A stretch of 64,000 bases of DNA from Alphaproteobacteria bacterium. Its GTDB lineage: Bacteria; Pseudomonadota; Alphaproteobacteria; SP197. The stretch is from the NCBI GenBank assembly GCA_965200745.1, contig CBDAUZ010000002.1, positions 199,165 through 263,164 of the forward strand, given 5' to 3'. The notes under the pieces were generated by a model, which had not been told where the DNA came from, searched no databases, and worked only from the letters and a program-made list of their open reading frames with translations. Made by a program: the position numbers and the translations under genes. Of this stretch, positions 11,743 through 46,597 are shown in pieces (positions within the stretch are counted from its first letter, which is position 1; each line of letters opens with the position of its first letter).

Positions 11743-11759
11743 CGTGGCAATCTCCCCAC

Positions 11760-24223: not shown

Positions 24224-24244
24224 ACCTCATTCCAGGAGAATGTC

Positions 24245-27982: not shown

Positions 27983-29538
27983 GACGCGGTTCTCGGTTCG
28001 GCAAGGTTTCCAATGGCCTTGGCCTTGATCCTGACGGCACCACCGGGAAGATAGGCGAGCGGAACCTCTTCAAGGCTCAGGATTTCGGTGGTCTCCAGAT
28101 GAGCTCCTGCGGCAACGGCCCGTTCGACGGCTTCCTCTTTTGCCAGGCTCATTGCGTGATCTCGACCGACCTCTTCATATGAGAAGATCTTGTCGACCTC
28201 CCCTCCCACCTGAGCAAGACCTGCCCCGATTGCGTTTGCCACGCCGGCGTTCTCAGGGCGAAGAACTTCACTGGCTCCGGCAATGTTTCGGTCTACAAGG
28301 ATCGTACCGCCGCCGACCAGTATAACCGGCACTGCGCCCTGACTGGACTTTACCTTGTCGACTGTGTCTTCGAGTTTCTTGTGGATCTCGTCCAGGGTCG
28401 CGTCGATCAATTCGCAGCTCAGATGCTCAACCCTGGATCTCTCTCCAATGTCAGCCTGACCCGCCGCGACAGCGACATCGGTTGTGGTCAGCGTGTCGCC
28501 GCCAAAGACCAGGGCTTTTTCCGTCAGCTTCAAGGCAACAGAGTCCGGCCCCACGGTCACACCGTCAGGCGTTTCTCGCACGATGCTGCCACCACCAAGT
28601 CCCACGGACAGGATGTCCGGCATGCGGAAATTGGTCCGGACAGAGCCAATATCCACTGCGAGTGCGCTTTCCCGCGGGAACCCGTCCTTCAACACGCCGA
28701 CATCAGATGTGGTTCCACCAATGTCGATGACGACCCCTTCCTTTACACCGGACAGGAAGGCTGCACCGCGCATGGAATTCGTTGGACCGGAGGCGAAGGT
28801 AAGTACCGGGTACTTCTCGGCAAACTCCGCGATCATCAATGTTCCGTCATTCTGCGAGATGAAAAAGGGACATGTGAGGTTCAGGTCTGCCAGCGCCGAA
28901 CGGAAAGCGTTCACGACGATCCTTGACAGTTCTGCCAGTGACGCATTCATGATCGCAGCGTTTTCTCGTTCGATCAGCCCTACCCGCCCGATCTCACTTG
29001 AGAGGGTCAGGAGGGTATCAGGCACTTCGTCGCGAATGATCTCGGCGATACGCTTTTCGTTTGATCCGTTGATCGGTGAAAATACACCGGAGATCGCTGC
29101 GGATGTGATGCCTTTTGCCTTCATGTCGCGCGCCGCTTCGCTCACCGCGGCTTCGTCCAGAGCCCGGATCTCGCGTCCGTCGAACTCGTACCCGCCGCCG
29201 ACCAGATAGGAAACCTGGCCAATTGCAGTGCGCAGATGTGGCGGAAAATCTGCCATTGGCAGAAGGCTCTCCGTGGCGGGCAACGACGCACGAAATGTGG
29301 CGACAGGAACAAGTCGTTTGCCTTCGATAAATGCGTTCGTGAACTGGGTCGTGCCGATCATGACGCTGGAGATTCCATCCGGTTTGACACCGGATTGGAA
29401 CAAAACGCTTTGAACAGCGGCGATTACACCGGATGCGACGTCTTCAGTTGTCGGCGATTTGATGGAAGCAACAACCTTCTCCCCGTCAATCAGCGCAGCG
29501 TCAGTATTTGTGCCACCAACATCAACTCCAATGTGCAT
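27979..29538 (-). CDS. Hydantoinase/oxoprolinase-family protein (HyuA-like, ASKHA-fold ATPase).
   Basis: MHIGVDVGGTNTDAALI start, plus second sugar-kinase-like motifs VVIDIGGTTSDVG...LGGGS. GAGGAGA SD. Confidence 0.8.
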   Translation of the reverse strand: MHIGVDVGGTNTDAALIDGEKVVASIKSPTTEDVASGVIAAVQSVLFQSGVKPDGISSVMIGTTQFTNAFIEGKRLVPVATFRASLPATESLLPMADFPPHLRTAIGQVSYLVGGGYEFDGREIRALDEAAVSEAARDMKAKGITSAAISGVFSPINGSNEKRIAEIIRDEVPDTLLTLSSEIGRVGLIERENAAIMNASLAELSRIVVNAFRSALADLNLTCPFFISQNDGTLMIAEFAEKYPVLTFASGPTNSMRGAAFLSGVKEGVVIDIGGTTSDVGVLKDGFPRESALAVDIGSVRTNFRMPDILSVGLGGGSIVRETPDGVTVGPDSVALKLTEKALVFGGDTLTTTDVAVAAGQADIGERSRVEHLSCELIDATLDEIHKKLEDTVDKVKSSQGAVPVILVGGGTILVDRNIAGASEVLRPENAGVANAIGAGLAQVGGEVDKIFSYEEVGRDHAMSLAKEEAVERAVAAGAHLETTEILSLEEVPLAYLPGGAVRIKAKAIGNLAEPRTAS

Positions 29539-30089: not shown

Positions 30090-30620
30090 TATTGCGACGG
30101 CGACCGGGCGCAACGGGAATTTGCCCGCAGTTCCTGCCCCGATGGCCGCATACGCCGCCGAATTGCCGCGATGGGTCAGGCGTGGCATCAGCATCCGGGC
30201 AAGCCCTTGCCGGTGATCTTTCCGCGTCCCGCAGATCAGAAGGCAGCCTATCGCCTGCTCTCGAACGAGAGGGTGAAGATGAAGCACATGTTCGAGTCGC
30301 ATTTTGAGGCGACGGTCGACCGCTGCCGGCAGGAGCGGTTTGTTCTGGCGATCCAGGACACGACGACGCTGAATTACACCAATTTGTTGACGACCCAGGG
30401 TCTCGACAAGTCCGGTGTGCGGACTCGCGGATACGCGATTACCCGGAACTCAGAAACTGTGTATCCCCTCTACCACTGTTCTGGTTGCTCCCGCTCTACA
30501 GCAAGAAACAAGGAAAACCACATGCCGTACAGTGCGCGGAATCAAGTCTGTCATATTGACAGCCCGGTATGCGGGTCGCGGATACGCTGTATTGTGTTCC
30601 TTCTGTATTGTCCGGTTTAA
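30090..30620 (+). mobile_element. Remnant of an IS4-family (IS50/Tn5-like) transposase gene. Only about the N-terminal 115 aa is recognisable, after which the reading frame degenerates; no intact IS.
   Basis: ...RIRRRIAAMGQAWHQHPGKPLPVIF..QKAAYRLLSNERVKMKHMFESHF...ERFVLAIQDTTTLNYT parallels Tn5 Tnp ...EGAYRFIRNPNVS...LLAIEDTTSLSY. Similarity is lost after about 30440. No DDE core. Followed by AT-rich DNA 30440-30730. Confidence 0.6.
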
Positions 30621-30731: not shown

Positions 30732-31424
30732 TTGCGCGACATACATGAACGGCTTGCCCGCGTGACAAGTGCAACCGTTTCCACGCAATTGTTCAAACGC
30801 GGATTTCGCTCAGTCTCGATTCACGGTATCGCGCCGTTGTCACCTGATCAGCCGACAATTGCCGGCCCTGTCTGGACCATGCGTTTCACGCCGTATCGTG
30901 AAGACCTCGTGGACCTTGATCACACGGCCAGCAGCAGAAGTGTCTTTCGCCAGACAATCGAGCATGCGCCGGCCGGATCAGTCGTTGTCGCCGAAACAGG
31001 TGGTGATCCCTCATCCGGTGTACTTGGCGATATCCTGTCGACCCGCCTTCGGCACCGCGGTGTTGCCGGGCTCGTGACCGATGGAACAGTACGCGACGTC
31101 AACGGTATTCTGGCAAGCGGATTTCCTGTCGTTTGTCGTGGTGGCGCAGCACCGGCAAGTGTCGTGAACTTCTATGAAGCAGGTCACAGCGAAATCATAA
31201 ACTGCGGCGGCGTAACCATCCTTCCTGGCGACAGCATCATCGCCGATTGCGATGGCGCCGTGGTAATCCCGGCATCGATTCTCGAACCGGTTGTCCAGGC
31301 CTGCGAGGAACAGGAAGCCTACGAAGCGTGGGCCCTTGCACAGGTCAAGTCTGGTCGAAGTGTGCTTGAAGTCTATCCGGGCACGGACGAATCGCGAGAG
31401 GAATTCAGGTCCAGTCGCCTGTAG
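30732..31424 (+). CDS. RraA-family protein (RraA / 4-hydroxy-4-methyl-2-oxoglutarate aldolase / oxaloacetate decarboxylase family).
   Basis: 230 aa. RraA/MenG-fold motifs (GDILSTRLRHRGVAGLVTDGTVRD, ...VIPAS...). Confidence 0.8.
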   Translation: MRDIHERLARVTSATVSTQLFKRGFRSVSIHGIAPLSPDQPTIAGPVWTMRFTPYREDLVDLDHTASSRSVFRQTIEHAPAGSVVVAETGGDPSSGVLGDILSTRLRHRGVAGLVTDGTVRDVNGILASGFPVVCRGGAAPASVVNFYEAGHSEIINCGGVTILPGDSIIADCDGAVVIPASILEPVVQACEEQEAYEAWALAQVKSGRSVLEVYPGTDESREEFRSSRL

Positions 31425-31477: not shown

Positions 31478-32728
31478 TCAACCAATCGCAATCAATTCCA
31501 GCGGCGTTTCCGAGAGTATGCGGGTGCCGTCATGGCCGTACACGAGCGTGTCGATCAGATGGGTATCAAAAAGGCTTTCGTAGTTGGTCACCATGTTTTC
31601 CTGAAATACCCGATCGAGATACTTGTCATCGCCAGTATGAAAATAGAAGTCGCCCACCCAGTCCGGCGGCAAAGAGAGGCCCAGTTCATAACCCAGGCCC
31701 CAGCCACCGGTTTCGGTCCACAGTCCGGTGTCTACATAGTACTGCCGTAACAACGCATTGACCTCACCGACCGTCATCCCTGCCTTCACCTGATTGCGAA
31801 AGATCTCGAAGCTGCCAGCGGAGAGGACGTAGCGCTCCGCGAGGCGTTCAGGCGGATTACTGCCGACAAAGTAGCCGCGCAGTGCATTTGCGTGATATCG
31901 GTTGTAGACCCCGCAGAGGTCGGCACAGAGAATCTCGCCTTCGGCGATAACCTTGCGGCCAGCCATTGTGTGTCCGCTCGACATCGGCACGCCATCGACA
32001 ACGGGTGCCGTGTTGAAAATCGGAATCAACGCCGAGAACTCGCCGCCGGCAGCCATCATCGCCGCCATTACTTTCCCGAACAATGTCAGTTCGGTCATAC
32101 CGGGTTCAAGGTTTTCCATGATCGCCTTGTGTCCGATATCACAGATCTGCATCGCCCTTTCGATACAGGCGATTTCTTCAGGCGACTTTACACGTCGTGC
32201 CTGGCGTACAAGGGCACTTGAATCGCGCGGTCGACAACCGTTTGCAAGAAACGCTCCTTCAAACATGACGCTGATCGCGCGGTTCGGGAGATAACTCCAG
32301 TGTTCCATGCCAATGACACCTGAAAGCCAGCCCTCCCTCTCGAGCTCTGACATGACGAAGTGAATGTTCGGCTCGGCTTCCCGGTCCGGGAGGTATCGAT
32401 TGTCACTTGAGCAGGATGTCGCAGCCAGAACGGGTTCTTCTGTCGGATTGTCGAAATGGATGAATCGCCGCTCCCGTATGTTGACCGCCGTTCCATAACA
32501 CTGCGGATAACGCATCGGCCCCTGACCCTTGTACCAGGATGCCGTGAATCCGTGCAGCCATGCGATACCTTCCGGCGACGTGATCCAGAGCAGTTCAAAC
32601 CCTTCGTTCGCGCCAAGTTCAATGAGGCAATTCAGGCGCCTTGAATACTCCTGTTCGGTGAACGGCAGGGTGACGTCCGGCATGTATGCAGAATCAAAAT
32701 ACCCCGGTACGAGGCCTGTACGCGTCAT
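31478..32728 (-). CDS. M24-family creatinase/Xaa-Pro-peptidase-fold hydrolase (creatinase / ectoine-hydrolase-like amidinohydrolase).
   Basis: Creatinase_N-like N-terminal domain plus pita-bread M24 C-terminal domain. Start ATG 32728 (MTRTGLVPGYF...) overlaps the upstream PhyH gene stop (ATGA). The ORF track starts earlier at 32851. Confidence 0.8.
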   Translation of the reverse strand: MTRTGLVPGYFDSAYMPDVTLPFTEQEYSRRLNCLIELGANEGFELLWITSPEGIAWLHGFTASWYKGQGPMRYPQCYGTAVNIRERRFIHFDNPTEEPVLAATSCSSDNRYLPDREAEPNIHFVMSELEREGWLSGVIGMEHWSYLPNRAISVMFEGAFLANGCRPRDSSALVRQARRVKSPEEIACIERAMQICDIGHKAIMENLEPGMTELTLFGKVMAAMMAAGGEFSALIPIFNTAPVVDGVPMSSGHTMAGRKVIAEGEILCADLCGVYNRYHANALRGYFVGSNPPERLAERYVLSAGSFEIFRNQVKAGMTVGEVNALLRQYYVDTGLWTETGGWGLGYELGLSLPPDWVGDFYFHTGDDKYLDRVFQENMVTNYESLFDTHLIDTLVYGHDGTRILSETPLELIAIG

Positions 32729-33600
32729 GACGTATTCCCGAACAGTTCGACACGTCCGTCTATAGAAACTGACGGACACAGGATGCTTTGCAATGAATCT
32801 CCCGGGTGCAGGCCAATTGCATCGAATTCGGGCAGCAAGTCCGGGTTGCAACCGGCCAGTCTGTCGGTCAACCGGGAATCAAGACCCAACCATTGTGCGG
32901 AAACCGAACGGCGTCCGAGCCCGTTCGGCAGGCTCCCGGAGCCACCATGAACCGTCATCCCGTGAAAGACCAGAACATCGCCCGGCTCCATGCACCACTT
33001 GAGTATCTCGAATGACTTCTCGTCAGCGTTCGCAATGCCCTCAATTGGCGTGAAATCCTCGTACTGCTGTTCCAGGGCGCCACCAAGATTTTCCTGCTCG
33101 AAATGTGCAAGCTCCAGCGGTCTGTCCCAGAGATGGGAACCTCTTACAAACTCGAGTTCCGTTCCTGCCGGCACCGGATCAAGTGATGTCCAGACGCTCA
33201 ACGCACACGGTCCACTGGCACACCAATACGGTTGGTCCTGATGCCAGGGTGTTCGTGACCCTGTTCCGGACGACCGCACAAAGACCGACAGGTAGAAGGC
33301 GAGAGCCGTTGTCCTGCGCATCAGTGCCGCTGCAATCGGGCCGACCGGCGACATGGTCATGTAACGCATGAAACCTGGCCGCCCATTCACCAGGGATGCA
33401 TCGTAGAAAATGTGATCGCCGGTCGCCGCGTCGTTGACCCAGTCCACATGATGGCGCCCGGGTTCGTTCAACGTGTCCGCGACGGCCCGCTCCAGTTCGC
33501 TCAACCAGTCATCGCTGAGGACGCATTTCAACATGACGACTCCGTCTTGCTCAAACCTGGCGATGTCCTCGGATGTCACGGGAAATTGTTCAGCATTCAT
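32725..33600 (-). CDS. Phytanoyl-CoA dioxygenase (PhyH)-family Fe(II)/2-oxoglutarate-dependent hydroxylase (EctD-like fold).
   Basis: HQDQPYW (H-x-D facial triad) and downstream His. Start at MNAEQFPV (ATG 33600) with an AAGGAGA SD. Confidence 0.8.
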   Translation of the reverse strand: MNAEQFPVTSEDIARFEQDGVVMLKCVLSDDWLSELERAVADTLNEPGRHHVDWVNDAATGDHIFYDASLVNGRPGFMRYMTMSPVGPIAAALMRRTTALAFYLSVFVRSSGTGSRTPWHQDQPYWCASGPCALSVWTSLDPVPAGTELEFVRGSHLWDRPLELAHFEQENLGGALEQQYEDFTPIEGIANADEKSFEILKWCMEPGDVLVFHGMTVHGGSGSLPNGLGRRSVSAQWLGLDSRLTDRLAGCNPDLLPEFDAIGLHPGDSLQSILCPSVSIDGRVELFGNTS

Positions 33601-33665
33601 CGTGACAGCGTCTCCTTGTTGGCGGCGACTTGACGAACAACCCGAAACCGAAAAAACCAAGACCC

Positions 33666-34235
33666 TTACATGGACACATCGAAGCTCTGATAGGTCCGGC
33701 TGGTCTTGTCATACATCAATCGACCCTTCAGTTGCTCGAATGAACGTCCGTAGAGGTGCAGATGCATGTTGTAGACACCCTCTTCCATGTGAATTGAATG
33801 AAATTCATCCGGCATGAGCGCTACACCGGCGTTCTTCTCGACCCGTACCTCGCGTGCAATCTTGAGGGGGGCGACACCGGCGTCTCCGCCATCTCCTTCA
33901 TAAACCTTGTTGAGTTCAAGTCCGCGAATGCCAACGACAACCGCCCAGGTGGTATGATTGTGCGGAGGCGTCGTCACGTACTTGTTCGCAACTTCGATGT
34001 AGAGCTCGTAGCGACCATCATCATCAACTGAAAGAACCTTGAAAACCTCTCCACCGGATTCATCGGAAATCGGGTAATCCTCCACCGGGAACAACTCGGT
34101 CCTCGCACCCAGCGCAATCATGACGTCGCGAATGTCCTGAAGGGATTCGTGTGTGATTCCTCGTTCTGCTTCTATGGCCCGAACCTGTGACAATGCGCTT
34201 TCGATTGCCCGGTCGCGTTCCGATGAAAGTGTCAT
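33666..34235 (-). CDS. Cupin-fold protein, cysteine-dioxygenase-type-I-like (3-His thiol dioxygenase-like).
   Basis: PHNHTTWAVVVGIRG ... EFHSIHMEEG are cupin His motifs. Start ATG 34235 with GGAGGAG SD. The longer ORF from 34355 lacks an SD. Confidence 0.6.
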   Translation of the reverse strand: MTLSSERDRAIESALSQVRAIEAERGITHESLQDIRDVMIALGARTELFPVEDYPISDESGGEVFKVLSVDDDGRYELYIEVANKYVTTPPHNHTTWAVVVGIRGLELNKVYEGDGGDAGVAPLKIAREVRVEKNAGVALMPDEFHSIHMEEGVYNMHLHLYGRSFEQLKGRLMYDKTSRTYQSFDVSM

Positions 34236-34338
34236 GTTCTCCTCCGTTTTCGCCTTCCCAGTCGACCGCGTGGTCGTCATGAACTCTTGCACGATGGTAC
34301 GAAGTGGCAGGACCAACGCAACACGTTTGCTGTCCGGT

Positions 34339-35160
34339 TCACCGCCAACGTTCACGCGGTGTGCGCAGTTTGTCGTCTTCCACGAGATCTTTCACACATT
34401 CGGTGATGAGTTCTGCCCATGATCGCGCGTCGGCAGGCGATTGAACGAGGTCCTGTCGAATCTCGAACTGGAAGTGTGCCAGACCGCGACGCATGGCGTG
34501 CTCGGGAATCGTGTAGTCAATCCCCAGATCGAGTCCGTATGGCTCGTTGTCGCCGACAACCAGTGACCGGCGTGCATCCAGTCGCTCCAGAACAATCCGG
34601 GCAATACGATCATCCTGTGTCCAGCACACCGTGAATTCCTGCTTTCGGCGCGGTTGACCACGCATCTGTGGCGTCATCGTGTGTACCGAAATGACGACTG
34701 GTGAAATTGCGGCGTCCGCGAACCGCTGGATCGCCGTTTCTATGGCCGCGTGATAGGGACGCCATACATCCGAGATGCGCGCCGTCCTGTCTGTTTCGCC
34801 CAGTTCACTGTTTCCCGGAACCACAATCCCGTCACTGACCGACAGGATTGAATCAGGATCGTGCGTGTATCGATTGCAGTCGATGACAAGTCGTGAGTAG
34901 CTTGCCAGGATCGCAGGTGCGTTCAGTCCATTCGCAAGTTCCTGTGCGACGGCTTGCGCACCGATGTCCCAGGCCATGTGTTCTCGCAAGTGATCTTCGC
35001 TCAGTCCGAGCTGTGCCAGGGCGGCGGGTATGACATTCGATGCGTGATCGCAAACGATCAGACAGGGCGCACCACCGTCTGCGTTGAACTGGACAAACGG
35101 CGGTGGATCAGAATTTTCGGACAACACCGGACTACCAGCCCGCGAACTGCGCGACATCAT
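34339..35160 (-). CDS. N-formylglutamate amidohydrolase (FGase, PF05013)-family hydrolase.
   Basis: 273 aa. LIVCDHASNVIP..., ...VISVHTMTP... are FGase-family segments. Start overlaps the 3' end of the upstream aminotransferase by 29 nt. Confidence 0.7.
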   Translation of the reverse strand: MMSRSSRAGSPVLSENSDPPPFVQFNADGGAPCLIVCDHASNVIPAALAQLGLSEDHLREHMAWDIGAQAVAQELANGLNAPAILASYSRLVIDCNRYTHDPDSILSVSDGIVVPGNSELGETDRTARISDVWRPYHAAIETAIQRFADAAISPVVISVHTMTPQMRGQPRRKQEFTVCWTQDDRIARIVLERLDARRSLVVGDNEPYGLDLGIDYTIPEHAMRRGLAHFQFEIRQDLVQSPADARSWAELITECVKDLVEDDKLRTPRERWR

Positions 35161-36451
35161 CGTCGCTCACACGTCCTTGTTCCACGTCGTCGATGGCCTG
35201 CACAAGAATCTCGCCGGCGGTGCGTGCCTCGTCCTCACTCAGCGTCAGAGGTGGCGTGAGTTCCGGAACGTTGGAATGCAGTCCGACATAGGTCAGGAAC
35301 ACGCCAAGTTCATACGCCCGATAAACAACCTTGGCCGCCTCGGATGTGGCCGGTGATCTGGAATTGCGATCACGAACCAGTTCAATACCGATTGCGAGTC
35401 CCCGACCGCGTACGTCACCGATCAATGGATGACGGTCTTGCTGATCACGCAGGTAATTGACGATCTGTCTGCCGCGCGCCTGTGCGTTTACGGCAAGATT
35501 CTCTCGTTCCAGTGTTTCGAGAACAGCCTTCGCCACCGTCGCCGAAACCGAGTTTCCGGTCGTCGTGATCAGTGCAAAGGCACTCTGGAAATCCATGACT
35601 GCGCACGGTGCAATGACAGCCGAGACAGGTACACCGCTGCCCAAACCCTTGCCGAGCACAACGACGTCCGGAACAAAACCCTCAGCCAGATAACAGTGCA
35701 TGACTCCAGGTCGGCCGAGACCGACCTTCACCTCGTCGCTGACGATCAGAATCCCGTGTTGACGGCAACGCCGCGCAAGTTCACGGAGAAACCCGTCCGG
35801 AGGCACAATCATCCCGCCGTCGGACTGCAGCGGCTCAATGAAGATTGCACCGATATCAGAGGGATCGACGGCACTGCTGAACAGGAAGTCAAGGTACGTG
35901 AGTACATCCTCACCGGGATTGTTCTGCGACAACGGGCGGTATGGGTTCGGGTACGGCAATTGCAGCAACCCCGCGGACGGCAAGGCGTGTTGCTGTGACG
36001 GGTGGCTCGAGATCGACATGGAGCCTGCAACACCGCCATGATAGGCTCCGAAGAAACTCAGGAACCTGCGGCGTCCCGTAGCTGCGGCGATGGTGCGCAT
36101 CGCCGTGTCGTTCGCATCAGAACCACTGTGCCCAAGCCAGACCTTGTGATCGCGGGCCTCCGGAATGATCGACAAGAGGTGTTCCGCCAGCGAAACAGCT
36201 GCTTCCGACGAACCGAACAGGTCCGCTGCGTTGGCATACTCCTCGAGACCGCGCTGCGCCGCTTCAACCACCGCAGGATGTCGATAACCCAGGGATGCCG
36301 CGCCTGCCGCACCGGACATGTCAAGAACCCTGCGGCCGTCCTCTTCAATCAGGTAGTTGCCGATGCCGCCACGAATTGTCAGCGGGCAGGTCCGGAGCTT
36401 GCCGATGTTCGCCATGGACCTGGCATCGCGTTCGATGAGCGAATTCACCAT
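35132..36451 (-). CDS. Class-III (omega) aminotransferase, PLP-dependent.
   Basis: SGSDANDTA, DEVKVGLGRPG (catalytic Lys region), LGKGLGSG, IGDVRGRGL. Start ATG 36451 with AGGAGAA SD. Confidence 0.85.
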   Translation of the reverse strand: MVNSLIERDARSMANIGKLRTCPLTIRGGIGNYLIEEDGRRVLDMSGAAGAASLGYRHPAVVEAAQRGLEEYANAADLFGSSEAAVSLAEHLLSIIPEARDHKVWLGHSGSDANDTAMRTIAAATGRRRFLSFFGAYHGGVAGSMSISSHPSQQHALPSAGLLQLPYPNPYRPLSQNNPGEDVLTYLDFLFSSAVDPSDIGAIFIEPLQSDGGMIVPPDGFLRELARRCRQHGILIVSDEVKVGLGRPGVMHCYLAEGFVPDVVVLGKGLGSGVPVSAVIAPCAVMDFQSAFALITTTGNSVSATVAKAVLETLERENLAVNAQARGRQIVNYLRDQQDRHPLIGDVRGRGLAIGIELVRDRNSRSPATSEAAKVVYRAYELGVFLTYVGLHSNVPELTPPLTLSEDEARTAGEILVQAIDDVEQGRVSDDDVAQFAGW

Positions 36452-36461
36452 GCCTGTTCTC

Positions 36462-37346
36462 CTATCGAATTGCCTCACGGCGACCAAGCAAGCCTTCAGG
36501 TCGAACCAGAAGCAGGAGAATCACAAGTGTCAGTGTGATCGACTCGCGAAACGGTAACCAGGCGTCGGGCAGGAATGCCCGCAAGGTCACCTCGATGAAT
36601 GCAAGCGCAAATCCGCCCACGACCGCACCGGAAAGACTGCCCAATCCGCCAAGAACCACCGCAATGAACGCCTTCAGGACAGGCAGGAATCCCATGAGCG
36701 GGTCGACAGATCCGCGTTGCGCGAGCCAGAGTACGCCAGCCACGCCGGCAAGTAATCCGGATATGCCGAATGCGGTTGCAATGACGGCGTTGGCATTGAT
36801 TCCCATCAGGCGTGTCACCGGAAAATCGAGTGCCGCGGCACGCATGGCCAGTCCGAGAATGGAACGTTTGAGAAACACCGTCAGGGCAAACAACAGCAAT
36901 GCCGTCGCCGAGATCGAAAGCGCCTGAATGACACCGATGCTCAATCCTCCGATCTCGATTGCACCGATCATCCACGAGGGAACCGGGATCGCTCTCGGGC
37001 GGGCCGAAATGAGATTCTGAAACAACATGTGAAGGATTGTGCTGACCGCAAAGCTGGTAAGCAGCATGGTCGCGGTATTGGCGTTTCGAACGGGTCGAAA
37101 GGCAATCCGCTCCATCAGAACGGCTGATATGGTCGCAAGCGCGATGCCCAGGGCAACCGCCGCCGCGAACCCGAGGCCGGCGCCAATGGCAAAGAACATC
37201 GTGTAACCCGTGATCGTCATCAGTTCGCCATGCGCGAAGTTGATGAGACCGAGTACGGAAAAGACCATGGCGAGCCCCAACGCCAGCAGCGCATAGGTGC
37301 CGCCAAGCGACAAGGCGTTCACGAATTGCTGAAACAGGATTTCCAA
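36462..37346 (-). CDS. Branched-chain-amino-acid-type ABC transporter permease (LivH-like).
   Basis: 294 aa. Polytopic LivH-family permease (GLINFAHGELMTITGY...). Confidence 0.85.
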   Translation of the reverse strand: MEILFQQFVNALSLGGTYALLALGLAMVFSVLGLINFAHGELMTITGYTMFFAIGAGLGFAAAVALGIALATISAVLMERIAFRPVRNANTATMLLTSFAVSTILHMLFQNLISARPRAIPVPSWMIGAIEIGGLSIGVIQALSISATALLLFALTVFLKRSILGLAMRAAALDFPVTRLMGINANAVIATAFGISGLLAGVAGVLWLAQRGSVDPLMGFLPVLKAFIAVVLGGLGSLSGAVVGGFALAFIEVTLRAFLPDAWLPFRESITLTLVILLLLVRPEGLLGRREAIR

Positions 37347-37355
37347 CGCGTGACC

Positions 37356-38087
37356 TCAGTGAACCCCGAGATAGGCGTGTTCAATTTCCGTTGACTGGCG
37401 CAACTCTGCAGCACTGCCAGACAACCGGATGGCGCCCGTACTCAGGACATATCCACGGTCGGCGATCTCGAGTGCCAGATCGACATTCTGTTCGACGAGA
37501 AGAATCGTCACGCCGCGTTGCTTCAATTGAACAATTAGATCGAAGATTGTCTCAACGACCTGCGGCGCCAGCCCGAGAGACGGTTCGTCGAGAAGGAGAA
37601 TTCGGGGACCCGACATCATGGCGCGGGCAAGCGCCAGCATCTGCTGCTCCCCGCCTGACAGTGTTCCGGCGACCTGTTCCCGCCTCTCGGAGAGAATGGG
37701 AAACAGGCCGAGCATGTCGGCCCTGAGGCTGTCCTCTTCACCACCCTTGCCACGAGTCAGTGCGGCACCGATTGCCAGATTTTCAAGTACAGTCAGGTTC
37801 GAAAATATTCGCCGTCCTTCAGGACATAATGTCATGCCACGCCGGACGATCTTCTCCGGCGGCAAGCCCGTCACATTATCCTGTTCAAGATAAACCGAGC
37901 CCGACTGCACCGGCACAAGTCCCATGATGGCATTGAGATACGAACTCTTCCCGGCACCATTGGCGCCGAGAAGAGTTACGATCTCACCCTTACCGATGAC
38001 GAGGCTCGCGCCTCGCACTGCTTCTACCGGTCCGTATCGGACGACAAGATCCTCAACGGAGAGCAGATGCGTCGCATCAGTTATCAC
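37356..38087 (-). CDS. ABC transporter ATP-binding protein (LivF-like).
   Basis: Walker A GANGAGKSS, signature LSGGEQQML, Walker B ILLLDEPSLGL. Confidence 0.9.
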   Translation of the reverse strand: MITDATHLLSVEDLVVRYGPVEAVRGASLVIGKGEIVTLLGANGAGKSSYLNAIMGLVPVQSGSVYLEQDNVTGLPPEKIVRRGMTLCPEGRRIFSNLTVLENLAIGAALTRGKGGEEDSLRADMLGLFPILSERREQVAGTLSGGEQQMLALARAMMSGPRILLLDEPSLGLAPQVVETIFDLIVQLKQRGVTILLVEQNVDLALEIADRGYVLSTGAIRLSGSAAELRQSTEIEHAYLGVH

Positions 38088-39253
38088 GGAGCCGGAATCG
38101 AAGCGGGATCCGGGGAAAAGTCACCGACATGGGCGCGTTCACCATTCGAGACCATGTTCAGGGCAACAACCCGGACCGGAACACGATTCTGGTCCTTGTA
38201 GGTGATGGAACCCGTTGCAACCTCGACATTCTCGAGATTGTCCCACGCATCGCGAATATCCGAACCCATGGTTGAACCTGCTGCCTCGATCGCCGCGGCA
38301 ATAACCATCATGAGGTCATACCCGGTTGCCGTGAAAATCGTGTCGTTCTTTTCGCCGTACTTGGCTTCATATGCCATCTCGTATGCTTCGAGTGCACTGC
38401 CCGGGGAGGCAAAACCCGCATTCGAGAAAACAACCCCTTCGGCAACTTCGCCAAGACCAAATGTTGTCGGTGAATCAATTCCGTCACTGCCGAGAACGGG
38501 TGTGGTGATTCCTGCCGCCCGCAACTGCTTGAGGAATGCCGGAAAGTCCGGCTCATAAGCCGACGTCTGGATCACGTCCGGCTGGGGATCGAGGCCCTTG
38601 ATGTTCGTGACCTCGGCAGAGAAGTCCTGTTGCCCCATCGTGTACTCGCCAACGGCAACGACGTTTCCACCCGCATTCTCGAATGCTTCGGCGAAATACT
38701 CGGGCAATTTCTCCGTATAGGGCGTATCGCGTGACAGAAGCACATAGGCATTTTCGTAGCCTTGCTCGCGTGCATACTGCGCCAGAACAGCACCCTGGAT
38801 ATTGTCAGCCGTGTAGTTCGAGAACATGTACGGACCAACGGCCGCCGGCAGCGTTGGTGTCGACGCACACGAACTCGCGGCAGGAATCTCCGATGCCTGT
38901 GCGATCACGCCTGATGCCACCGCGGGGTCCACGTCACATGAAACAATCATCGCGACAACGCCCTCGTCAACGAGCTCCTGCGCAACTGTCGCGGCTTGCG
39001 CTGTGTCGGAGCGCGTATCCTTGACGATCAGTTCCACTGGCATGCCCATGATGCCGCCTGCTGCGTTGATCTCGTCAACAGCGAGCTGGACACCCTTGAG
39101 CGATGGCTGGTCGTATGGTGCCAGATAACCGGTGAACCCACCGGCGTACCCGATCTTGAGGCCATGGCCATCCGCCAGCCCTGTTCCAGTCATGCCCATC
39201 GTGCCTGCAACGAACGCAGCAGCGATGACCATCCGGTTTAAAACATGTCTCAC
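38084..39253 (-). CDS. ABC transporter periplasmic substrate-binding protein (LivJ/LivK-type, amino acid / amide / urea-like ligand).
   Basis: 389 aa. Signal peptide (MRHVLNRMVIAAAFVAGTMGMTG), type-I PBP fold. Start overlaps the livMG-fusion stop. Confidence 0.85.
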   Translation of the reverse strand: MRHVLNRMVIAAAFVAGTMGMTGTGLADGHGLKIGYAGGFTGYLAPYDQPSLKGVQLAVDEINAAGGIMGMPVELIVKDTRSDTAQAATVAQELVDEGVVAMIVSCDVDPAVASGVIAQASEIPAASSCASTPTLPAAVGPYMFSNYTADNIQGAVLAQYAREQGYENAYVLLSRDTPYTEKLPEYFAEAFENAGGNVVAVGEYTMGQQDFSAEVTNIKGLDPQPDVIQTSAYEPDFPAFLKQLRAAGITTPVLGSDGIDSPTTFGLGEVAEGVVFSNAGFASPGSALEAYEMAYEAKYGEKNDTIFTATGYDLMMVIAAAIEAAGSTMGSDIRDAWDNLENVEVATGSITYKDQNRVPVRVVALNMVSNGERAHVGDFSPDPASIPAP

Positions 39254-41130
39254 AATCCATTCCTCCTTGGTTGAAGTCCCGGGTTTCCCGGATCCTTGTG
39301 TCGCGTTCCGAGATACGCCTCGATGACATCCGGGTTCGATTGTGTCTCCTGGGGCGTACCAGACGCAATGACTTGCCCCTTGTTCAGTACGACAACGCGA
39401 TCACACAAGCGCATGATCAGGCGCAAGTCATGATCAACGACGAGTAATCCCAGGTGACGCTTTGCCCTCAGGGCAAAGAGTATATCAAGCAGTTCATCCG
39501 ATTCAGCGTCGTTCATGCCTGCTGCAGGCTCATCCAACAGAAGATATCTTGGATCCAGTGCGAGTGCGCGGGCGATTTCCAGACGACGCTGTGATCCATA
39601 GGCAAGCGTACCGGCGCGCCGCTCCCCATACGAACTGATGCCGAGTTCGCCAAGCAGCGCATCGGTGCGTTCCTCGAGGACGGCAGTCGAGTACTTCTTT
39701 CCACCCGCAGCAAGCGCTGCCGTGACGTTTTCGCGACAAGTCAGGTTTTCGAACAGCCTGACATTCTGGAATGTCCGGCCCAGGCGGCGGCGCGCGATCA
39801 GATGTGTGTCGAGTCCTGTCACGTCCGCATCGTCCAGCAGAACGCGTCCGGACGAGAGATCCAGCGCACCGGAAATGCACCCCAACAGGGTGGTCTTTCC
39901 GGAACCGTTCGGTCCGATCAGACCGAGAATCTCACCGCACTGGAGCGTCAGGCTGACGTCGTCCACGGCGCGAACGCCCCCGAAGTTCTTTGCGACATGT
40001 TCAATCCTGAGGGATCCGCTCCGTACACCGGTTCCCACCGTTTCCTGCAGAGTCCCGGAAACCGGTACAGGCGCGCGCTTGCGCCAGGCCTCGGGAAGAA
40101 ACTCCTCGATTTCACGAAATCCGAGCAGACCGTTTCGTCGCCAGACAAAAACCGCAATGATCGCAAGACTGAGTCCGATGTCCGTCAAGCCGAAGACCGT
40201 CGGTTCGTCAAAGTAGGTGGTGTTGATCGTCTCTTCGGCACCGCGCAACACTTCGATCAGGACCGTGACGAGAACTGCGCCCGCGACAGCCCCCGTAACA
40301 CTGGACATACCGCCGACAATGAGCATCACCAGCATTGCGAACGTGATCTGGAAATAGAACTCGCGCGGCGAATAGACGCCCAGGTAATGCGCAAGAAGCA
40401 CGCCGGCGACCGCGGCAATTGCCGCACTGATTGTCCATGAAACAAGGCGTTCCCTTTGGACGTCGACGCCGATGGCGCGCGCGCCCGCCTCGTCCTCGCG
40501 TGCGGCACGCAACCTGAGGCCGGAACGGGAGTCCCTGTAGAATCGCGCAGCCAGGAGGGCAAGGATGAGAAAGACAAGTGCAACGGGAATATCGACAGTC
40601 TTCGGAACGCCGATCAGCGCCTGGCTCCCGCGGGTGAAATCCCGCGCACCCACAACCACGCCATAGGCGATGATGAGGAGACCAAGCGTCGCAATCGCAG
40701 CCGAGGCGCCACCAAGGCGACTGATCGGAATGCCAACCAGGAAACCCAGAACGGTCACGATCGCCACAGCGATCATCCCGGCGACAAGGAAATGCAGTTC
40801 GACAGTCGCCAGCCAAGGGGGAAGATCCGCCAGAAAGAAGGCCTTCTGCTGGACCGGAATCGTCAGGACACCGGTGATATGTGCAGCAATTCCCATGAAT
40901 GCCGCATGCCCGAAACTCAGAATTCCCGAGTTGCCGGTGAATACGCATACGGCAATGACCGCGGTCGAGAGCACCAGCCAGTGAGTCACTGTACCCTGGA
41001 GGGCAGCACCGGCTGTTGTCCAGAACACCATCGCAATGACGACAATCGGAACGAGCAGTACGACGCAGCCAAACAGTGCGTTTCGGGTGACATCGATGCC
41101 GGACATCAGCTCCGTTACTGGAAGTCGCAT
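39250..41130 (-). CDS. Fused ABC permease (LivM-like) and ATP-binding (LivG-like) protein.
   Basis: 626 aa. N-terminal polytopic permease; C-terminal ATPase with Walker A GPNGSGKTT, LAYGSQRRLEIARAL, LLLDEPAAGM. Confidence 0.85.
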   Translation of the reverse strand: MRLPVTELMSGIDVTRNALFGCVVLLVPIVVIAMVFWTTAGAALQGTVTHWLVLSTAVIAVCVFTGNSGILSFGHAAFMGIAAHITGVLTIPVQQKAFFLADLPPWLATVELHFLVAGMIAVAIVTVLGFLVGIPISRLGGASAAIATLGLLIIAYGVVVGARDFTRGSQALIGVPKTVDIPVALVFLILALLAARFYRDSRSGLRLRAAREDEAGARAIGVDVQRERLVSWTISAAIAAVAGVLLAHYLGVYSPREFYFQITFAMLVMLIVGGMSSVTGAVAGAVLVTVLIEVLRGAEETINTTYFDEPTVFGLTDIGLSLAIIAVFVWRRNGLLGFREIEEFLPEAWRKRAPVPVSGTLQETVGTGVRSGSLRIEHVAKNFGGVRAVDDVSLTLQCGEILGLIGPNGSGKTTLLGCISGALDLSSGRVLLDDADVTGLDTHLIARRRLGRTFQNVRLFENLTCRENVTAALAAGGKKYSTAVLEERTDALLGELGISSYGERRAGTLAYGSQRRLEIARALALDPRYLLLDEPAAGMNDAESDELLDILFALRAKRHLGLLVVDHDLRLIMRLCDRVVVLNKGQVIASGTPQETQSNPDVIEAYLGTRHKDPGNPGLQPRRNGL

Positions 41131-41502
41131 GACCTATGTCTTTCCGGCCCGGTTACGCAAAACGATGTCCTTTCAGTCCATAGCCCGGATTGCGTGACAA
41201 AATCCAGTTTCGACAGCGTCACTCAACCACGGACTCCCGGCGGCGACAACCTTGCCGCATCGGGCAAACCGGGTTGCTCAACGATACCCGACCGGCTTCA
41301 CGCGGAGTCAGTGGTGCTCCACAGGGGATCGTCGAATCATGCGCGTCCGATGGACGCACGCAGTCTGCGTATCCCTGTTTGCGATCCGTCGACCGGATTT
41401 CTGTTCGGGTTCAATTGTCCCGATTGCATGTGTTGACGCTGCATGCCCTGCTGCAAGATAGTGCCAACCGCATGGCATTTCTGCGACCTGAACGGTGATT
41501 CA

Positions 41503-42822
41503 ATGGCAATGAGCAACCTTATCAACCTTGTGTGGAACGATCTCGTCGGGATTACCCGGACGCGCGGTGTCATTGACGACGAGTTTCACCGTTTCAGGAC
41601 CCATGGACTGGGCTGGGCCATGGCCGGACAGTCTCTGACGCCTTTCGAGGATATTGCCGATAATCCGTGGGGGCCCATGGGAGAGGTTCGTCAGGTTCCC
41701 GATGAATCCACGATGATCGACATCGAGGTTCATTATGATCAGCCCATGTTGCGCCTCGTGTTCTGTGACAGCATGACCGCGGACGGCGAGCCATGGGAAT
41801 GTTGCACCCGCAGCTTTCTCAAACGCGCTTTGCACGATTTCAGGAATGAAACCGGGTTCGATCTACTCATCGCCTACGAGAATGAGTTTTCGCTGGTTGA
41901 CGAATTCGGCAAGCCGCGATGGGCGTCGCCTTTTTCACTGGATTCAATTCGGCTCGTTTCAAGGTTTGTCGAGGATTGCATCTACGCCTTGAAAGATGCC
42001 AGGGTCGGGCTGGAGACATTTGAACCCGAATATGGAGTCGGACAGTACGAGGTCAGTTGCGCTCCCGCAATCGGTGTTGCCGGTGCCGATCGCGTCATCA
42101 TCACGCGCGAGGTGATCCGCGACATGGCGCGGGTCGCAGGAGCCGTTGCAACCTTCAGTCCCAAACCGACTGCCGATGGCGTTGGAAACGGCTGTCATCT
42201 TCACATGAGTTTCCGTGACGCCCACGGTGGTAACGCGACAGTCGACGAGTCTCGTCCCGGTCATCTGAGCCGGGTCGCAGAACAGTTCGTTTCCGGCATT
42301 CAGAAACACATGAACGCATTGCTCGCGTTCACCGCACCCTCACCTGTTTCCTATCTCAGACTCGGGCCGCATCACTGGTCTTGCGGGTACAATGCGGTGG
42401 GCGTCCAGAACCGCGAAGCAGCGATCAGGATCTGTACATCACCTGGGCGGGCACCGGCCGAACGAAGCGCATCATACAATCTGGAGTTTCGGGCAACCGA
42501 TGCGACAGCCAGTCCCTATCTCACGATTGGAGTCCTCGTACGCGCAGGACTTGAAGGCATTCGTGCCAACCTGCCGGCACCCCGTCTGATCGAACAGGAC
42601 CCGGATGCGTTCAGTCCTGCCGAACGGGAGAAACTCGGGATCACCGCTCTGCCGGACGGACTCGAAATCGCGCTTGATGCGTTCCGGAATGACACGGTGG
42701 TCAGCAGCTGGTTCACACCGACAATGCGTGAAGCGTATCTGGCATTGAAGGAAACCGAAAAGGACATGGCTATCCGTCAGGATCCGTCGACAATTTGTGA
42801 AAGATATATCTGTGCCTACTGA
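41503..42822 (+). CDS. Glutamine-synthetase-family ligase (GS-like, second copy).
   Basis: GS catalytic-domain segments (YENEFSLV, GCHLHMSF, NREAAIRI...). Start at MAMSNLINLVW (ATG 41503); the ORF track starts at 41443. Confidence 0.8.
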   Translation: MAMSNLINLVWNDLVGITRTRGVIDDEFHRFRTHGLGWAMAGQSLTPFEDIADNPWGPMGEVRQVPDESTMIDIEVHYDQPMLRLVFCDSMTADGEPWECCTRSFLKRALHDFRNETGFDLLIAYENEFSLVDEFGKPRWASPFSLDSIRLVSRFVEDCIYALKDARVGLETFEPEYGVGQYEVSCAPAIGVAGADRVIITREVIRDMARVAGAVATFSPKPTADGVGNGCHLHMSFRDAHGGNATVDESRPGHLSRVAEQFVSGIQKHMNALLAFTAPSPVSYLRLGPHHWSCGYNAVGVQNREAAIRICTSPGRAPAERSASYNLEFRATDATASPYLTIGVLVRAGLEGIRANLPAPRLIEQDPDAFSPAEREKLGITALPDGLEIALDAFRNDTVVSSWFTPTMREAYLALKETEKDMAIRQDPSTICERYICAY

Positions 42823-43987
42823 TCATCCGGAGACGGATGTCGGGATCGACCTGATCGATCATCACTGTCATGGAGTCGTCACACACGATCTGGAACATGA
42901 CGCCTTCGAGCAATTGCTCAGCGAAAGCTACCGTCCACCGCCTGCGGGTACATCGCAGTTTGACAAGCCTCTCGGTCTCATGGTGCGCCGGTATTGCGCA
43001 CCACTGCTGGATCTTGAACCGCTGGTGTCAGGTCAACGATATGTGGAGCGCCGGCGCGAACTTGGTGCATTGGAGGTCAACCGCCGACTGCTGAGGGACT
43101 GCGGACTTGCCTGCCTTGTCGTTGATACCGGTCATCGCGGTGGCGAAATCGCCGATGTGCCGGAAATGTCCGACTTGAGCGCCAAACCGGCATTCGAGGT
43201 CGTTCGCATCGAAGCTGTGGCTGAAGAGGTGAAACGGAACGGGGCGACGGCTGAATCGTTTGCACGGGATTTTGCTGACGAGCTCGATAGGCGGTCCGTC
43301 CATGCCGCCGGTCTGAAAACCATCGCCGCGTATCGCGTTACATTCCGCATTGATCAGACAGCACCAACCGAAACGGAAGTTTCCCGTGGTATCGAGGACT
43401 GGTACCGGAAGTGCGACGAACACGGTGCCGTACGTATGGACAACGTCGACCTTGTCCGTTTCGGACTCTGGCGTGGTGCCGAGTTATGTCAGGACAGGAA
43501 ATTTCCCCTGCAAATTCATGTCGGATTCGGCGATCCGGACATCTACATGCAGGCATGCGACCCGACCTGCTTCACGGATTTTCTTCGAAGCATGGAGGAA
43601 CTCGGTGTCGATTGCACTCTCCTGCACAACTACCCGTTTCAGCGTCAGGCAGCCTGGCTCGCGGAAATATTCCGCAACGTCTATTTTGATGTCGGTGTGA
43701 TCCTGAACTTTGCCGGACCCCAGGCTCAATCAGTCATGGGTGAGGGCCTGGAGATCGGGCCGTTCTTCAAACAACTCTACAGTTCCGATGCGTTCGGCCT
43801 CGCCGAACTGTACTACCTCGGCCAATTCCAGTTCCGGCGCACGCTCAAGGCGTGTCTCGACAGCTGGATTGCCAACGACATGTGCAACACCCGCGAAGCG
43901 GACCGAATCGTCGCGATGATTGCGCGTGGAAACGCGATGCGCATCTATGACCAAAGCCTCGGGGACCTGAATGCTGGTCATACCTGA
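42797..43987 (+). CDS. Metal-dependent amidohydrolase-superfamily protein (amidohydrolase_2-like TIM barrel).
   Basis: N-terminal IDHHCHG (H-x-H metal ligands), later His/Asp positions. Start overlaps the 3' end of the GS-like gene, so the exact start is uncertain. Confidence 0.7.
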   Translation: MKDISVPTDHPETDVGIDLIDHHCHGVVTHDLEHDAFEQLLSESYRPPPAGTSQFDKPLGLMVRRYCAPLLDLEPLVSGQRYVERRRELGALEVNRRLLRDCGLACLVVDTGHRGGEIADVPEMSDLSAKPAFEVVRIEAVAEEVKRNGATAESFARDFADELDRRSVHAAGLKTIAAYRVTFRIDQTAPTETEVSRGIEDWYRKCDEHGAVRMDNVDLVRFGLWRGAELCQDRKFPLQIHVGFGDPDIYMQACDPTCFTDFLRSMEELGVDCTLLHNYPFQRQAAWLAEIFRNVYFDVGVILNFAGPQAQSVMGEGLEIGPFFKQLYSSDAFGLAELYYLGQFQFRRTLKACLDSWIANDMCNTREADRIVAMIARGNAMRIYDQSLGDLNAGHT

Positions 43988-45995: not shown

Positions 45996-46597
45996 GCGTC
46001 AAATCTTACGGCACGGCAGGCAAGATTGCCTATAGGTCCAACGATCGGACTTGTGAAAACGACCGATGCCGTGTGTTCGTTTCGTGGCCAACCGGACGGA
46101 TCGCCGCAAGGGTCACGCAACGACCCGAACGGAATTCAACCGACGATCTGCTTGTTCCCGTTATCAAACTGACAAGACCAGCCAGCCGATTGCCAGAGAA
46201 CCGGCTCATACACGATCGGGTTCGCGTCGTTGATTGGAGGAATCAATAGCTGGAAACCACCCTTGATACCCTGAGCGCTGCGCGTGCCATCTCGGCATCT
46301 GGTGTTGTGCGACAACAAGCCGAGGCTATCGCAAGCGCAATCGGCGACGTGAATTGAAAACATCCACGAGCGTCGCAACGGTCAGGGCCGACATTTCGGT
46401 CCTTGGATCGGACGTTGCTTTCCTTGAATGGGTCGGCGGGTTCAACATCGTTCTCTCACTTGCAGTCTTGATGATTGTCGCTACAGAACGCCTTCGAGAA
46501 TTCGACCAGGTCACGTGATCAGTTCTGAAACCACGAACCGTAAGCATGTCGAAACGCGCCATTCTGTTGCCTATCTGCCACCAATGGTTTAGATAAG

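Follow-up and report, generated by a model that had tools for sequence, protein, structure and literature searches.

What does a bacterium do with an operon that couples a Liv-type ABC importer to an unusual set of five enzymes? The question is raised by a 64,000-nucleotide (64-kb) stretch of DNA from an Alphaproteobacteria bacterium (GTDB lineage SP197; GenBank assembly GCA_965200745.1, contig CBDAUZ010000002.1, positions 199,165 to 263,164 of the forward strand), hereafter the window, in which nine minus-strand genes run from position 41130 down to 31478. An earlier account made from the DNA letters (the sequence-only reading) had described these genes as co-directional, with overlapping or near-abutting junctions, had noted a fused LivM/G gene in the importer, and had matched the set to none of the eut/doe, creatine, hut, taurine or hydroxyproline pathways. 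All of this holds: the nine open reading frames (ORFs) are present in that span and tightly spaced, their Pfam domains agree with the importer assignment, none of the nine proteins reaches a curated NCBIfam cut-off, and the NCBIfam equivalog scores for the named pathways fall far under their cut-offs, on which ground the ectoine, hut and creatine pathways were rejected as candidates. A published assignment of the gene set to a characterized pathway was likewise not found in the searchable literature, which is mostly without subscription journals. Our analysis shows that the conserved core of the unit spans 33666–43987 and includes a divergent ligase/amidohydrolase pair upstream of the operon. 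We favor, at a little under an even chance, the reading that the cluster is catabolic and would act by gamma-glutamyl "tagging" of a small imported, thiol-bearing compound of the amino-amide or lactam type. The system is thus of a known kind, gamma-glutamyl-dependent amine catabolism, but is a variant not previously described.

The first four genes encode the importer. These are a fused LivM-type permease and LivG-type ATPase (39250–41130; Pfam BPD_transp_2 at residues 51–297, ABC_tran at 390–536, and BCA_ABC_TP_C), a periplasmic substrate-binding protein (SBP) of the HAAT (amino acid/amide) family (38084–39253; Peripla_BP_6), a LivF-type ATPase (37356–38087; ABC_tran), and a LivH-type permease (36462–37346; BPD_transp_2). 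The LivF protein scored 234 bits against the NCBIfam LivF model, under its cut-off, and the top PDB matches of the SBP were LIV-type binding proteins at no more than 124 bits. There follow a pyridoxal phosphate (PLP) enzyme of the alpha-amino-epsilon-caprolactam (ACL)/amino-acid-amide racemase family (35132–36451, longest ORF from 36487; Aminotran_3), an FGase-family amidohydrolase that is a predicted gamma-glutamyl-amino acid hydrolase (34339–35160; PF05013, 152 bits), a predicted 3-His cupin thiol dioxygenase (33666–34235, longest ORF from 34355), a PhyH-family Fe/2-oxoglutarate oxygenase (32725–33600, longest ORF from 33660; PhyH, 68 bits), and a DoeA-like M24 "pita-bread" hydrolase (31478–32728, longest ORF from 32851; Peptidase_M24). 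Pfam bore out the family calls of the sequence-only reading for eight of the nine genes; the ninth, the cupin, had no Pfam match, and was placed by a PDB profile and an AlphaFold model.

The starts of the racemase-like, cupin, PhyH and M24 genes were moved to Shine-Dalgarno-like sites at 36451, 34235, 33600 and 32728, respectively. With these starts the successive junctions are −4, −4, +9, +10, −29, +103, +65 and −4 bp; the widest gaps therefore flank the cupin, 103 bp before it and 65 bp between it and PhyH, and the M24 start overlaps the PhyH stop by 4 bp. Consensus scans for promoters and terminators gave sites no more numerous than in shuffled sequence, and Rfam gave no regulatory RNA in or near the operon. 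By GC and GC3 per gene, PhyH and M24 are not compositionally foreign; the cupin alone is slightly lower, at 52.8% GC. The RraA-family gene reported to converge on the 3′ end of the operon is real and lies at 30732–31424.

The PLP enzyme had been read as a class-III aminotransferase catalyzing a transamination. It is instead a homolog of the ACL and amino-acid-amide racemases, with a predicted activity of that kind. The protein matched the amino acid amide racemase of Ochrobactrum anthropi (PDB 6gio) with 500 bits (E 3.5e-149) and the ACL racemase of Achromobacter obae (3dxw/2zuk) with 485 bits, both over the full length; the next family, represented by the alanine/serine racemase 9wqz, came at 289 bits, and the rest were no higher. 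The motifs DEVKVG, GKGLGSG, GAYHG and EPLQSDGG are present in the window enzyme and in all of its orthologs from metagenome-assembled genomes (MAGs), and they include the residues that it shares with the A. obae enzyme: the PLP lysine, the DEVK lysine, the GAYHG tyrosine (Tyr137) and the SDGG aspartate (Asp210). We take the DEVK lysine (Lys241 of the A. obae racemase), which replaces the Gln of the DEVQ found in ordinary class-III transaminases, to be diagnostic of ACL racemases. The window itself supplies an internal control, since a class-III paralog at 11748–12965 (minus strand), 33–35% identical to the racemase-like gene, has DEVQFG. Given the racemase homology, there is therefore no evidence for a transamination step. 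Identity to the characterized ACL and amide racemases is only about 50–55%, and racemase activity is a prediction. Substrates of the A. obae ACL racemase are alpha-amino lactams and amides, and homocysteine thiolactone is racemized in vitro as well (PMC11391342). A physiological role for these racemases was not found in the literature that could be searched.

The operon is preceded by an intergenic region of ~370 bp (41131–41502), presumed to hold promoters and regulatory sites, beyond which lie two plus-strand genes. The first (41503–42822, longest ORF from 41443; Gln-synt_N_2 and Gln-synt_C) encodes a glutamine synthetase-like (GS-like) protein, a predicted gamma-glutamyl-amine ligase resembling PA5508/PauA7 and the C-terminal half of FluG, a fungal developmental regulator. 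Its stop is overlapped, at 42797–42822, by the second gene (42797–43987; PF04909), whose product is an Amidohydro_2 TIM-barrel hydrolase that resembles the N-terminal half of FluG. The GS-like protein matched PDB 4hpp (PA5508) with 302 bits, as against no more than 154 bits for true glutamine synthetases; its top NCBIfam model was gamma-glutamylputrescine synthetase (295 bits against a cut-off of 650). The sole PDB match of the Amidohydro_2 protein was 2qpx, a "predicted metal-dependent hydrolase of the TIM-barrel fold" (128 bits), which we take to be the structure of the Lactobacillus paracasei amidohydrolase LSEI_0440; if so, the pair would be a split FluG. PA5508 and LSEI_0440 can replace the C- and N-terminal halves of FluG, respectively, and FluG has been proposed to act on a gamma-glutamylated intermediate (PMC6478659). 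As in FluG of Aspergillus nidulans and in SCO6961/SCO6962, an Amidohydro_2 part accompanies a GS-like part, here in adjacent, overlapping genes. Unlike FluG, the two are separate polypeptides set beside an operon for a transporter and hydrolases, and the likeness is one at gene level.

This pair bears on the FGase-family gene, which had been assigned a deformylation or deacylation. Its product scored 31.5 bits against the HutG equivalog TIGR02017 (cut-off 278.75), and its sole PDB match was Atu2144 (2odf, 135 bits). The gene is linked to a GS-like gene in every related locus and is ~37–44% identical to the FGase genes of GS-like clusters; its hydrolase activity is a predicted one. Family members have been placed in gamma-glutamyl metabolism before: SCO1615 of Streptomyces has a predicted role as gamma-glutamyl-amino-acid amidohydrolase in a GS-like amine pathway (PMC6529630), and in the ethanolamine operon of Phaeobacter MED193, which is related to experimentally shown pathways of C. 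salexigens and A. tumefaciens, a member is named gamma-glutamylglycine amidohydrolase (PMC10132767). The company of an FGase gene with a GS-like ligase and a FluG-N-like amidohydrolase points to gamma-glutamyl chemistry and not to deformylation.

Is this arrangement particular to the window? One genome per species was scanned with a cupin profile, and 80 loci were fetched and searched by tblastn with window and reference proteins. The order LivMG, SBP, LivF, LivH, racemase, FGase, cupin, sometimes with a D-serine-dehydratase-like (DSD-like) gene before the cupin, is kept in 16 fetched loci, all of them marine alphaproteobacterial or Rhodospirillaceae-type MAG contigs (L001, L002, L004–L007, L009–L011, L013–L016, L018 and L019, with L005 and L001 on the same chromosome). 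A seven-gene order retained in 16 loci is conservation far beyond chance. Co-occurrence outside this genome thus stands for seven of the nine genes and fails for PhyH and M24, homologs of which were found in none of the 16. The GS-like gene lies divergently upstream in 10 of the 16 syntenic loci, followed in six by an Amidohydro_2 ortholog (67–69% identity to that of the window); in the remaining loci the ligase position holds an RpiR gene or the fetched DNA ends. An RpiR ortholog stands upstream of LivMG in four MAG loci. It occupies the position that in the window is empty of a regulator: in 41131–41502 there was no Rfam match and no regulator gene, and consensus promoter matches were at chance level.

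Conservation is uneven along the operon. Between the window and its MAG orthologs, identity is 87–91% for the SBP and 84–88% for LivH, and is lower for LivMG (64–70%), LivF (66–73%), the racemase (66–74%), FGase (54–60%) and the cupin (60–68%). An SBP ~90% identical across genomes whose neighboring proteins are at 55–74% suggests a specific dissolved substrate under strong selection. Across all databases, SBP homologs fall into ~40 clusters at 77–89% identity and a remainder at 72% or less, with none between. The constraint has a mosaic pattern, in that LivF, encoded between SBP and LivH, diverges like the rest of the operon (54–74%).

The cupin gave no match to any Pfam family, including the CDO_I family PF05995, even at E ≤ 1, and Pfam annotation is empty for all 120 of its homologs. 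Looking up its exact sequence on contigs returned no record. A profile built from 24 homologs nevertheless matched mercaptosuccinate dioxygenase (MSDO; Variovorax paradoxus B4, PDB 8vni) at E 1e-36, and cysteine and 3-mercaptopropionate dioxygenases only at E > 0.003. Identity to MSDO is 34%, and the N-terminal 110 residues align free of gaps. The AlphaFold model (predicted local distance difference test, pLDDT, 93.7) has a TM-score of 0.89 to 8vni, which was also the first of its Foldseek matches; the top 50 PDB matches are thiol dioxygenases, ergothioneine dioxygenase or close homologs of these. The CDO-like 3-His cupin of the sequence-only reading is thus upheld, as a predicted 3-His thiol dioxygenase of the MSDO lineage.

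In MSDO, the iron is bound by H93, H95 and H149, with H161, H163 and Y165 in the second sphere; R175 holds the proximal, Fe-chelating carboxylate of mercaptosuccinate, and Q64, R66 and N82 hold the distal one (bioRxiv 10.64898/2026.05.19.726356). H92, H94 and H146 of the window cupin align with the iron ligands, and H161, H163, Y165 and R175 (MSDO numbering) are kept in it and in all 22 close homologs; across all 83 loci H163, Y165 and R175 are constant, and H161 varies in distant ones. The window cupin therefore shares with MSDO the fold, the 3-His iron site, the second-sphere residues and R175. It differs in that Q64, R66 and N82 are replaced by E63, F65 and E81. All 22 cupins of at least 51% identity (the window excluded) have this E/F/E triad; none of the ~60 more distant ones does, and these carry other triads. 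The replacement turns the distal pocket from cationic to anionic and, since the residues that bind the distal carboxylate are lost, makes mercaptosuccinate an unlikely substrate. The substrate expected for such a pocket would combine a thiol and a proximal carboxylate with a positively charged group, such as a cationic amine.

A second difference from MSDO concerns the neighborhood. A multi-rhodanese gene of ~520 codons lies downstream of the cupin in 74 of 83 loci, with and without the operon alike; this partner, typical of the family, is gone from the window, where tblastn found no rhodanese match anywhere in the 64 kb. In 11 E/F/E loci the cupin, or a short rhodanese gene standing between the two, is immediately preceded by a DSD-like PLP gene; these loci represent ten places, L001 and L005 being one chromosome. 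Further genes follow the rhodanese in some loci: a 260-residue bicupin with two Cupin_3/Cupin_2 domains in L004, L007–L009, L011–L014 and L017 and, after the bicupin in some of them, DUF692 (MbnB-like), DUF2063 and DoxX genes. The window has none of these.

The last two genes, PhyH and M24, had been the basis for proposing guanidino or cyclic-amidine substrates, but the pair co-occurs with the operon nowhere else. PhyH lies directly upstream of M24 orthologs in six other loci (L088, L095, L096, L097, L110 and L119), none of which has operon genes, and M24 homologs at 55–75% identity are common in genomes of the same kind. In the genome that carries syntenic locus L007, the PhyH–M24 pair (L088) lies 1.7 Mb from the operon and shows the same 4-bp overlap as in the window. 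PhyH–M24, always elsewhere without operon genes, therefore forms a cassette of its own; only here is it joined to the operon, in the slot that holds the rhodanese in relatives. It is probably co-transcribed with the operon and probably acts on another substrate, not as a step of the pathway.

As for what the cassette does, the PhyH protein has an HxD motif (WHQDQ) and a distal His; its top PDB match, MysH, an oxygenase that modifies mycosporine-like amino acids, reached 80 bits over residues 27–182, and a MysH-like role in mycosporine catabolism was rejected because the match covers only half of the protein. For M24, the top PDB match was DoeA (6twk, 86 bits), and its homologs also match Creatinase_N. 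The protein shares with DoeA/EutD the pita-bread fold, the motif GY..G.S.PPDW and the loss of metal ligands: in an alignment with prolidase 1pv9, Asn stands at the position of the second Asp ligand and GYE at that of GHG, so that the second Asp and the His metal ligands are lost. It is ~26% identical to plasmid doeA genes, however, and reached only ~15% of the DoeA equivalog cut-offs (90.7 bits against 613 for TIGR02993 and 92.9 against 575 for NF038259). Unlike in doe/eut, the genes of the finding give no NCBIfam match of DoeB, DoeC or DoeD type, and M24 sits in a separate cassette. M24 is thus a predicted DoeA- or creatinase-like hydrolase, neither a peptidase nor a DoeA ortholog. Structures of DddP exist in the PDB; a role for M24 as a DddP-type lyase of dimethylsulfoniopropionate was rejected, as there was no DddP chain among its PDB matches.

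In three loci (L088, L095 and L097) a divergent class-III-type alcohol dehydrogenase gene adjoins PhyH–M24, which hints that PhyH may be an oxidative N-dealkylase releasing an aldehyde. Demethylation and hydrolysis of creatine or guanidinoacetate by the pair is suggested, at the level of homology, by this formaldehyde-type neighbor. The dehydrogenase is itself a homolog of the S-hydroxymethyl-glutathione/mycothiol type, at ~310 bits and under the cut-off. Beside the rearranged 3′ end of the operon, an ORF at 30171–30620 (plus strand), between a hydantoinase-like gene and the RraA-like gene, has a weak Tnp_DNA_bind match (E 2e-4); it may be a scar of the arrival of PhyH–M24.

Related modules outside the marine MAGs help to define what is invariant. 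A cupin-less set of transporter, ligase, FGase and racemase is found on plasmids of Brucella anthropi (pOANT01), Shinella, Sinorhizobium, Maritalea and Sulfitobacter, where an RpiR regulator and usually an isochorismatase-type cysteine hydrolase are added, and Klebsiella plasmids have an APC permease in place of the ABC system. Annotations of pOANT01, Shinella, Maritalea and Sulfitobacter also show the fused LivMG. Relative to their pOANT01 counterparts, the window proteins have identities of 60% for the SBP, 67% for LivH, 64% for LivF, 47% for LivMG, 43% for the GS-like protein, 37% for FGase and 54% for the racemase; the Shinella SBP is likewise 60% identical, and the racemase is 52–54% identical to those of pOANT01 and Shinella. 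The window thus resembles this "ACL racemase module" in its fused-LivMG ABC system, GS-like ligase, FGase gene and racemase, and differs from it in that the window and the MAG loci have the Amidohydro_2 and cupin genes and no isochorismatase gene. In Chachezhania sediminis the module is minimal, with RpiR, GS-like and Amidohydro_2 genes, the Liv ABC system and FGase; that of Dongia mobilis has in addition an isochorismatase, a PLP enzyme of DEVK type and a pair of DAO-type oxidases, and so has both amidase types; to these two the window is 66–68% identical in the SBP and 50–56% in Amidohydro_2. The invariant core is therefore transporter, gamma-glutamyl ligase and FGase-family hydrolase, usually with an amidase or amidohydrolase, and the racemase and the thiol dioxygenase are lineage-specific additions to it.

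How could these enzymes work together? We derive each step from homology and gene linkage, by analogy with the gamma-glutamyl pathways for ethanolamine and polyamines. The HAAT-family importer would take up an amino-amide or lactam-type compound, and the ACL-racemase-like enzyme would interconvert the D and L configurations at the carbon that adjoins its amide, so that both enantiomers become usable. The PA5508-like ligase would then join glutamate to the free amine at the expense of ATP. The FluG-N-like amidohydrolase would open or hydrolyze the amide, lactam or thiolactone to a carboxylate, a step that in the plasmid versions would fall to the isochorismatase-type amidase. The FGase-family enzyme would split off the tag, yielding an amino acid and free glutamate. 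The E/F/E dioxygenase of the marine lineage would convert the substrate thiol to a sulfinate, from which sulfite would then be lost; in relatives, sulfur products would be handled by the rhodanese and, in some, by the D-specific PLP lyase. Candidate substrates are amides, peptides and thiolactones derived from cysteine or homocysteine. A literature search for gamma-glutamyl-cysteamine or gamma-glutamyl-hypotaurine, and for the catabolism of cysteinamide, returned nothing relevant, within the searchable part.

Among the closest known counterparts is the ethanolamine pathway (the Eto operon of Phaeobacter sp. MED193; C. salexigens; A. tumefaciens C58). Both have a GS-like gamma-glutamylase, an FGase-family amidohydrolase and an importer that works with an SBP of its own, and relatives of the window also have the RpiR regulator; the two would share a logic in which an amine is tagged with glutamate, an acid function is made, and the glutamate is removed. 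They differ in the middle of this scheme. The Eto operon has, besides a TRAP transporter, genes for alcohol and aldehyde dehydrogenases, none of which is in the window unit; there we find instead the Liv-type ABC system, the racemase, the Amidohydro_2 hydrolase and the thiol dioxygenase, and the GS-like protein is only 25% identical to that of an ethanolamine-type cluster in Ruegeria. Unlike the Puu, Pau and Eto operons, the unit contains no alcohol dehydrogenase, aldehyde dehydrogenase or amine oxidase, and the amidohydrolase and thiol dioxygenase are our candidates for making the acid function.

Several observations weigh against uniting all these genes in one pathway. The sequence of steps is a guess, as is the part given to the Amidohydro_2 enzyme, and the window has neither the RpiR regulator nor the rhodanese. 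The cupin–rhodanese pairing (74 of 83 loci) is independent of the operon, so that the cupin could be an autonomous module. Consistent with this, plasmid versions of the module have no thiol dioxygenase, and E/F/E cupins stand with no operon within 10 kb in L008, L012 and L022, though the L008 contig holds an 86%-identical SBP more than 10 kb from the cupin. The gaps of 103 bp before the cupin and 65 bp before PhyH could hold internal promoters. Moreover, E/F/E cupins all belong to one alphaproteobacterial lineage, and their link to the operon may reflect shared ancestry and not function.

These observations are what would be expected if the cluster were a mosaic of three co-oriented but functionally independent units: a gamma-glutamyl and racemase module acting, as on plasmids, on a sulfur-free amino-acid amide or alpha-amino lactam; a stand-alone thiol dioxygenase, normally with a rhodanese, that detoxifies or desulfurizes a free thiol; and the PhyH–M24 cassette doing something else. 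Such an arrangement would account for a rhodanese pairing that is near-universal with or without the operon, for E/F/E cupins of shared ancestry that can lie apart from it, for plasmid modules with no cupin, and for a cupin flanked by the operon's largest gaps, and the independence of PhyH–M24 is demonstrable. Against it, the cupin lies on the same strand directly downstream of FGase, or of the inserted DSD-like gene, in 16 MAG loci; in the window it has held this position though its rhodanese partner is gone; and the E/F/E pocket, which would suit an amino-thiol acid, is confined to the lineage that shows the linkage. We therefore regard three separate functions as a serious possibility, if a somewhat unlikely one.

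Much less probable is a non-catabolic role, in which a FluG-like system would make or recycle a gamma-glutamylated metabolite, for instance a gamma-glutamyl thiol or sulfinate serving as redox buffer, osmolyte or signal, with the transporter salvaging its precursor. Both FluG halves do have their best bacterial surrogates here (the 4hpp-like ligase and the 2qpx-like hydrolase), and the gamma-glutamylated intermediate proposed for FluG (PMC6478659) fits such a role. Hallmarks of catabolic gamma-glutamyl pathways are nonetheless present in the importer of high-affinity type, the amidohydrolase predicted to release glutamate and, among relatives, the RpiR-type repressor, and related modules lie on catabolic plasmids. 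Least probable of all, and very improbable in our view, is the single pathway of the sequence-only reading for a guanidino or cyclic-amidine osmolyte (taurocyamine-, hypotaurocyamine- or ectoine-like), with amidine hydrolysis by M24, deacylation by FGase, oxygenation by cupin and PhyH, and class-III transamination: the nine genes share one orientation and are closely spaced, the cupin does have a predicted thiol dioxygenase function, PhyH is a plausible hydroxylase or N-dealkylase, and M24 shares active-site motifs with DoeA and has no peptidase metal ligands, but M24 and PhyH are missing from all 16 syntenic loci and elsewhere form their own cassette beside a class-III-type alcohol dehydrogenase, the "aminotransferase" bears a racemase signature, DoeA equivalog scores are ~15% of the cut-offs, and the conserved pair of GS-like ligase and Amidohydro_2 hydrolase is left out.

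Other genes of the window may belong to similar metabolism. On the minus strand at 26879–29538, translational coupling links an S-Me-THD-like (DUF917) gene with a hydantoinase/oxoprolinase-A-like one; the best NCBIfam models for the DUF917 protein are S-methyl thiohydantoin and thiohydantoin desulfurase (78–93 bits against cut-offs of 440–450), and the two genes may be another catabolic pair, for a sulfur or nitrogen heterocycle. A plus-strand run at 21873–26688 encodes a Rieske oxygenase, a protein that by eye resembles a 2-hydroxyacid dehydrogenase, an alpha/beta hydrolase and another GS-like protein, which is type III-like and scored 348 bits (cut-off 470); the run may be a further amine-catabolic cluster. 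A plus-strand tmRNA gene of the alphaproteobacterial (permuted) type lies at 46563–46859 (Rfam RF01849, 251 bits); it was the sole Rfam match and settles the class to which the organism belongs.

Returning to catabolism by gamma-glutamyl tagging, its most specific form would be an unrecognized marine alphaproteobacterial route for assimilating an alpha-amino amide, lactam or thiolactone with a thiol group (such as homocysteine thiolactone, a cysteinyl peptide or amide, or some other aminothiol that is abundant in the sea) through racemization, ATP-dependent tagging, hydrolysis, deglutamylation and thiol dioxygenation. At this level of detail the proposal is a speculative one that we think unlikely. 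If true, it would give a first physiological role to the ACL and amino-acid-amide racemases, which have been used industrially as biocatalysts for decades, and a bacterial pathway context to both halves of FluG; amino-thiol acids in the anionic E/F/E pocket would be a new substrate class for the small thiol dioxygenase family. The presence of the racemase in a conserved module of ligase and hydrolase, here and on several plasmids, already yields a testable hypothesis for its cellular role, and the cupin offers a possible new specificity in a dioxygenase family with a handful of known substrates. The identity of the substrate would add a route to the marine cycling of organic nitrogen and sulfur.

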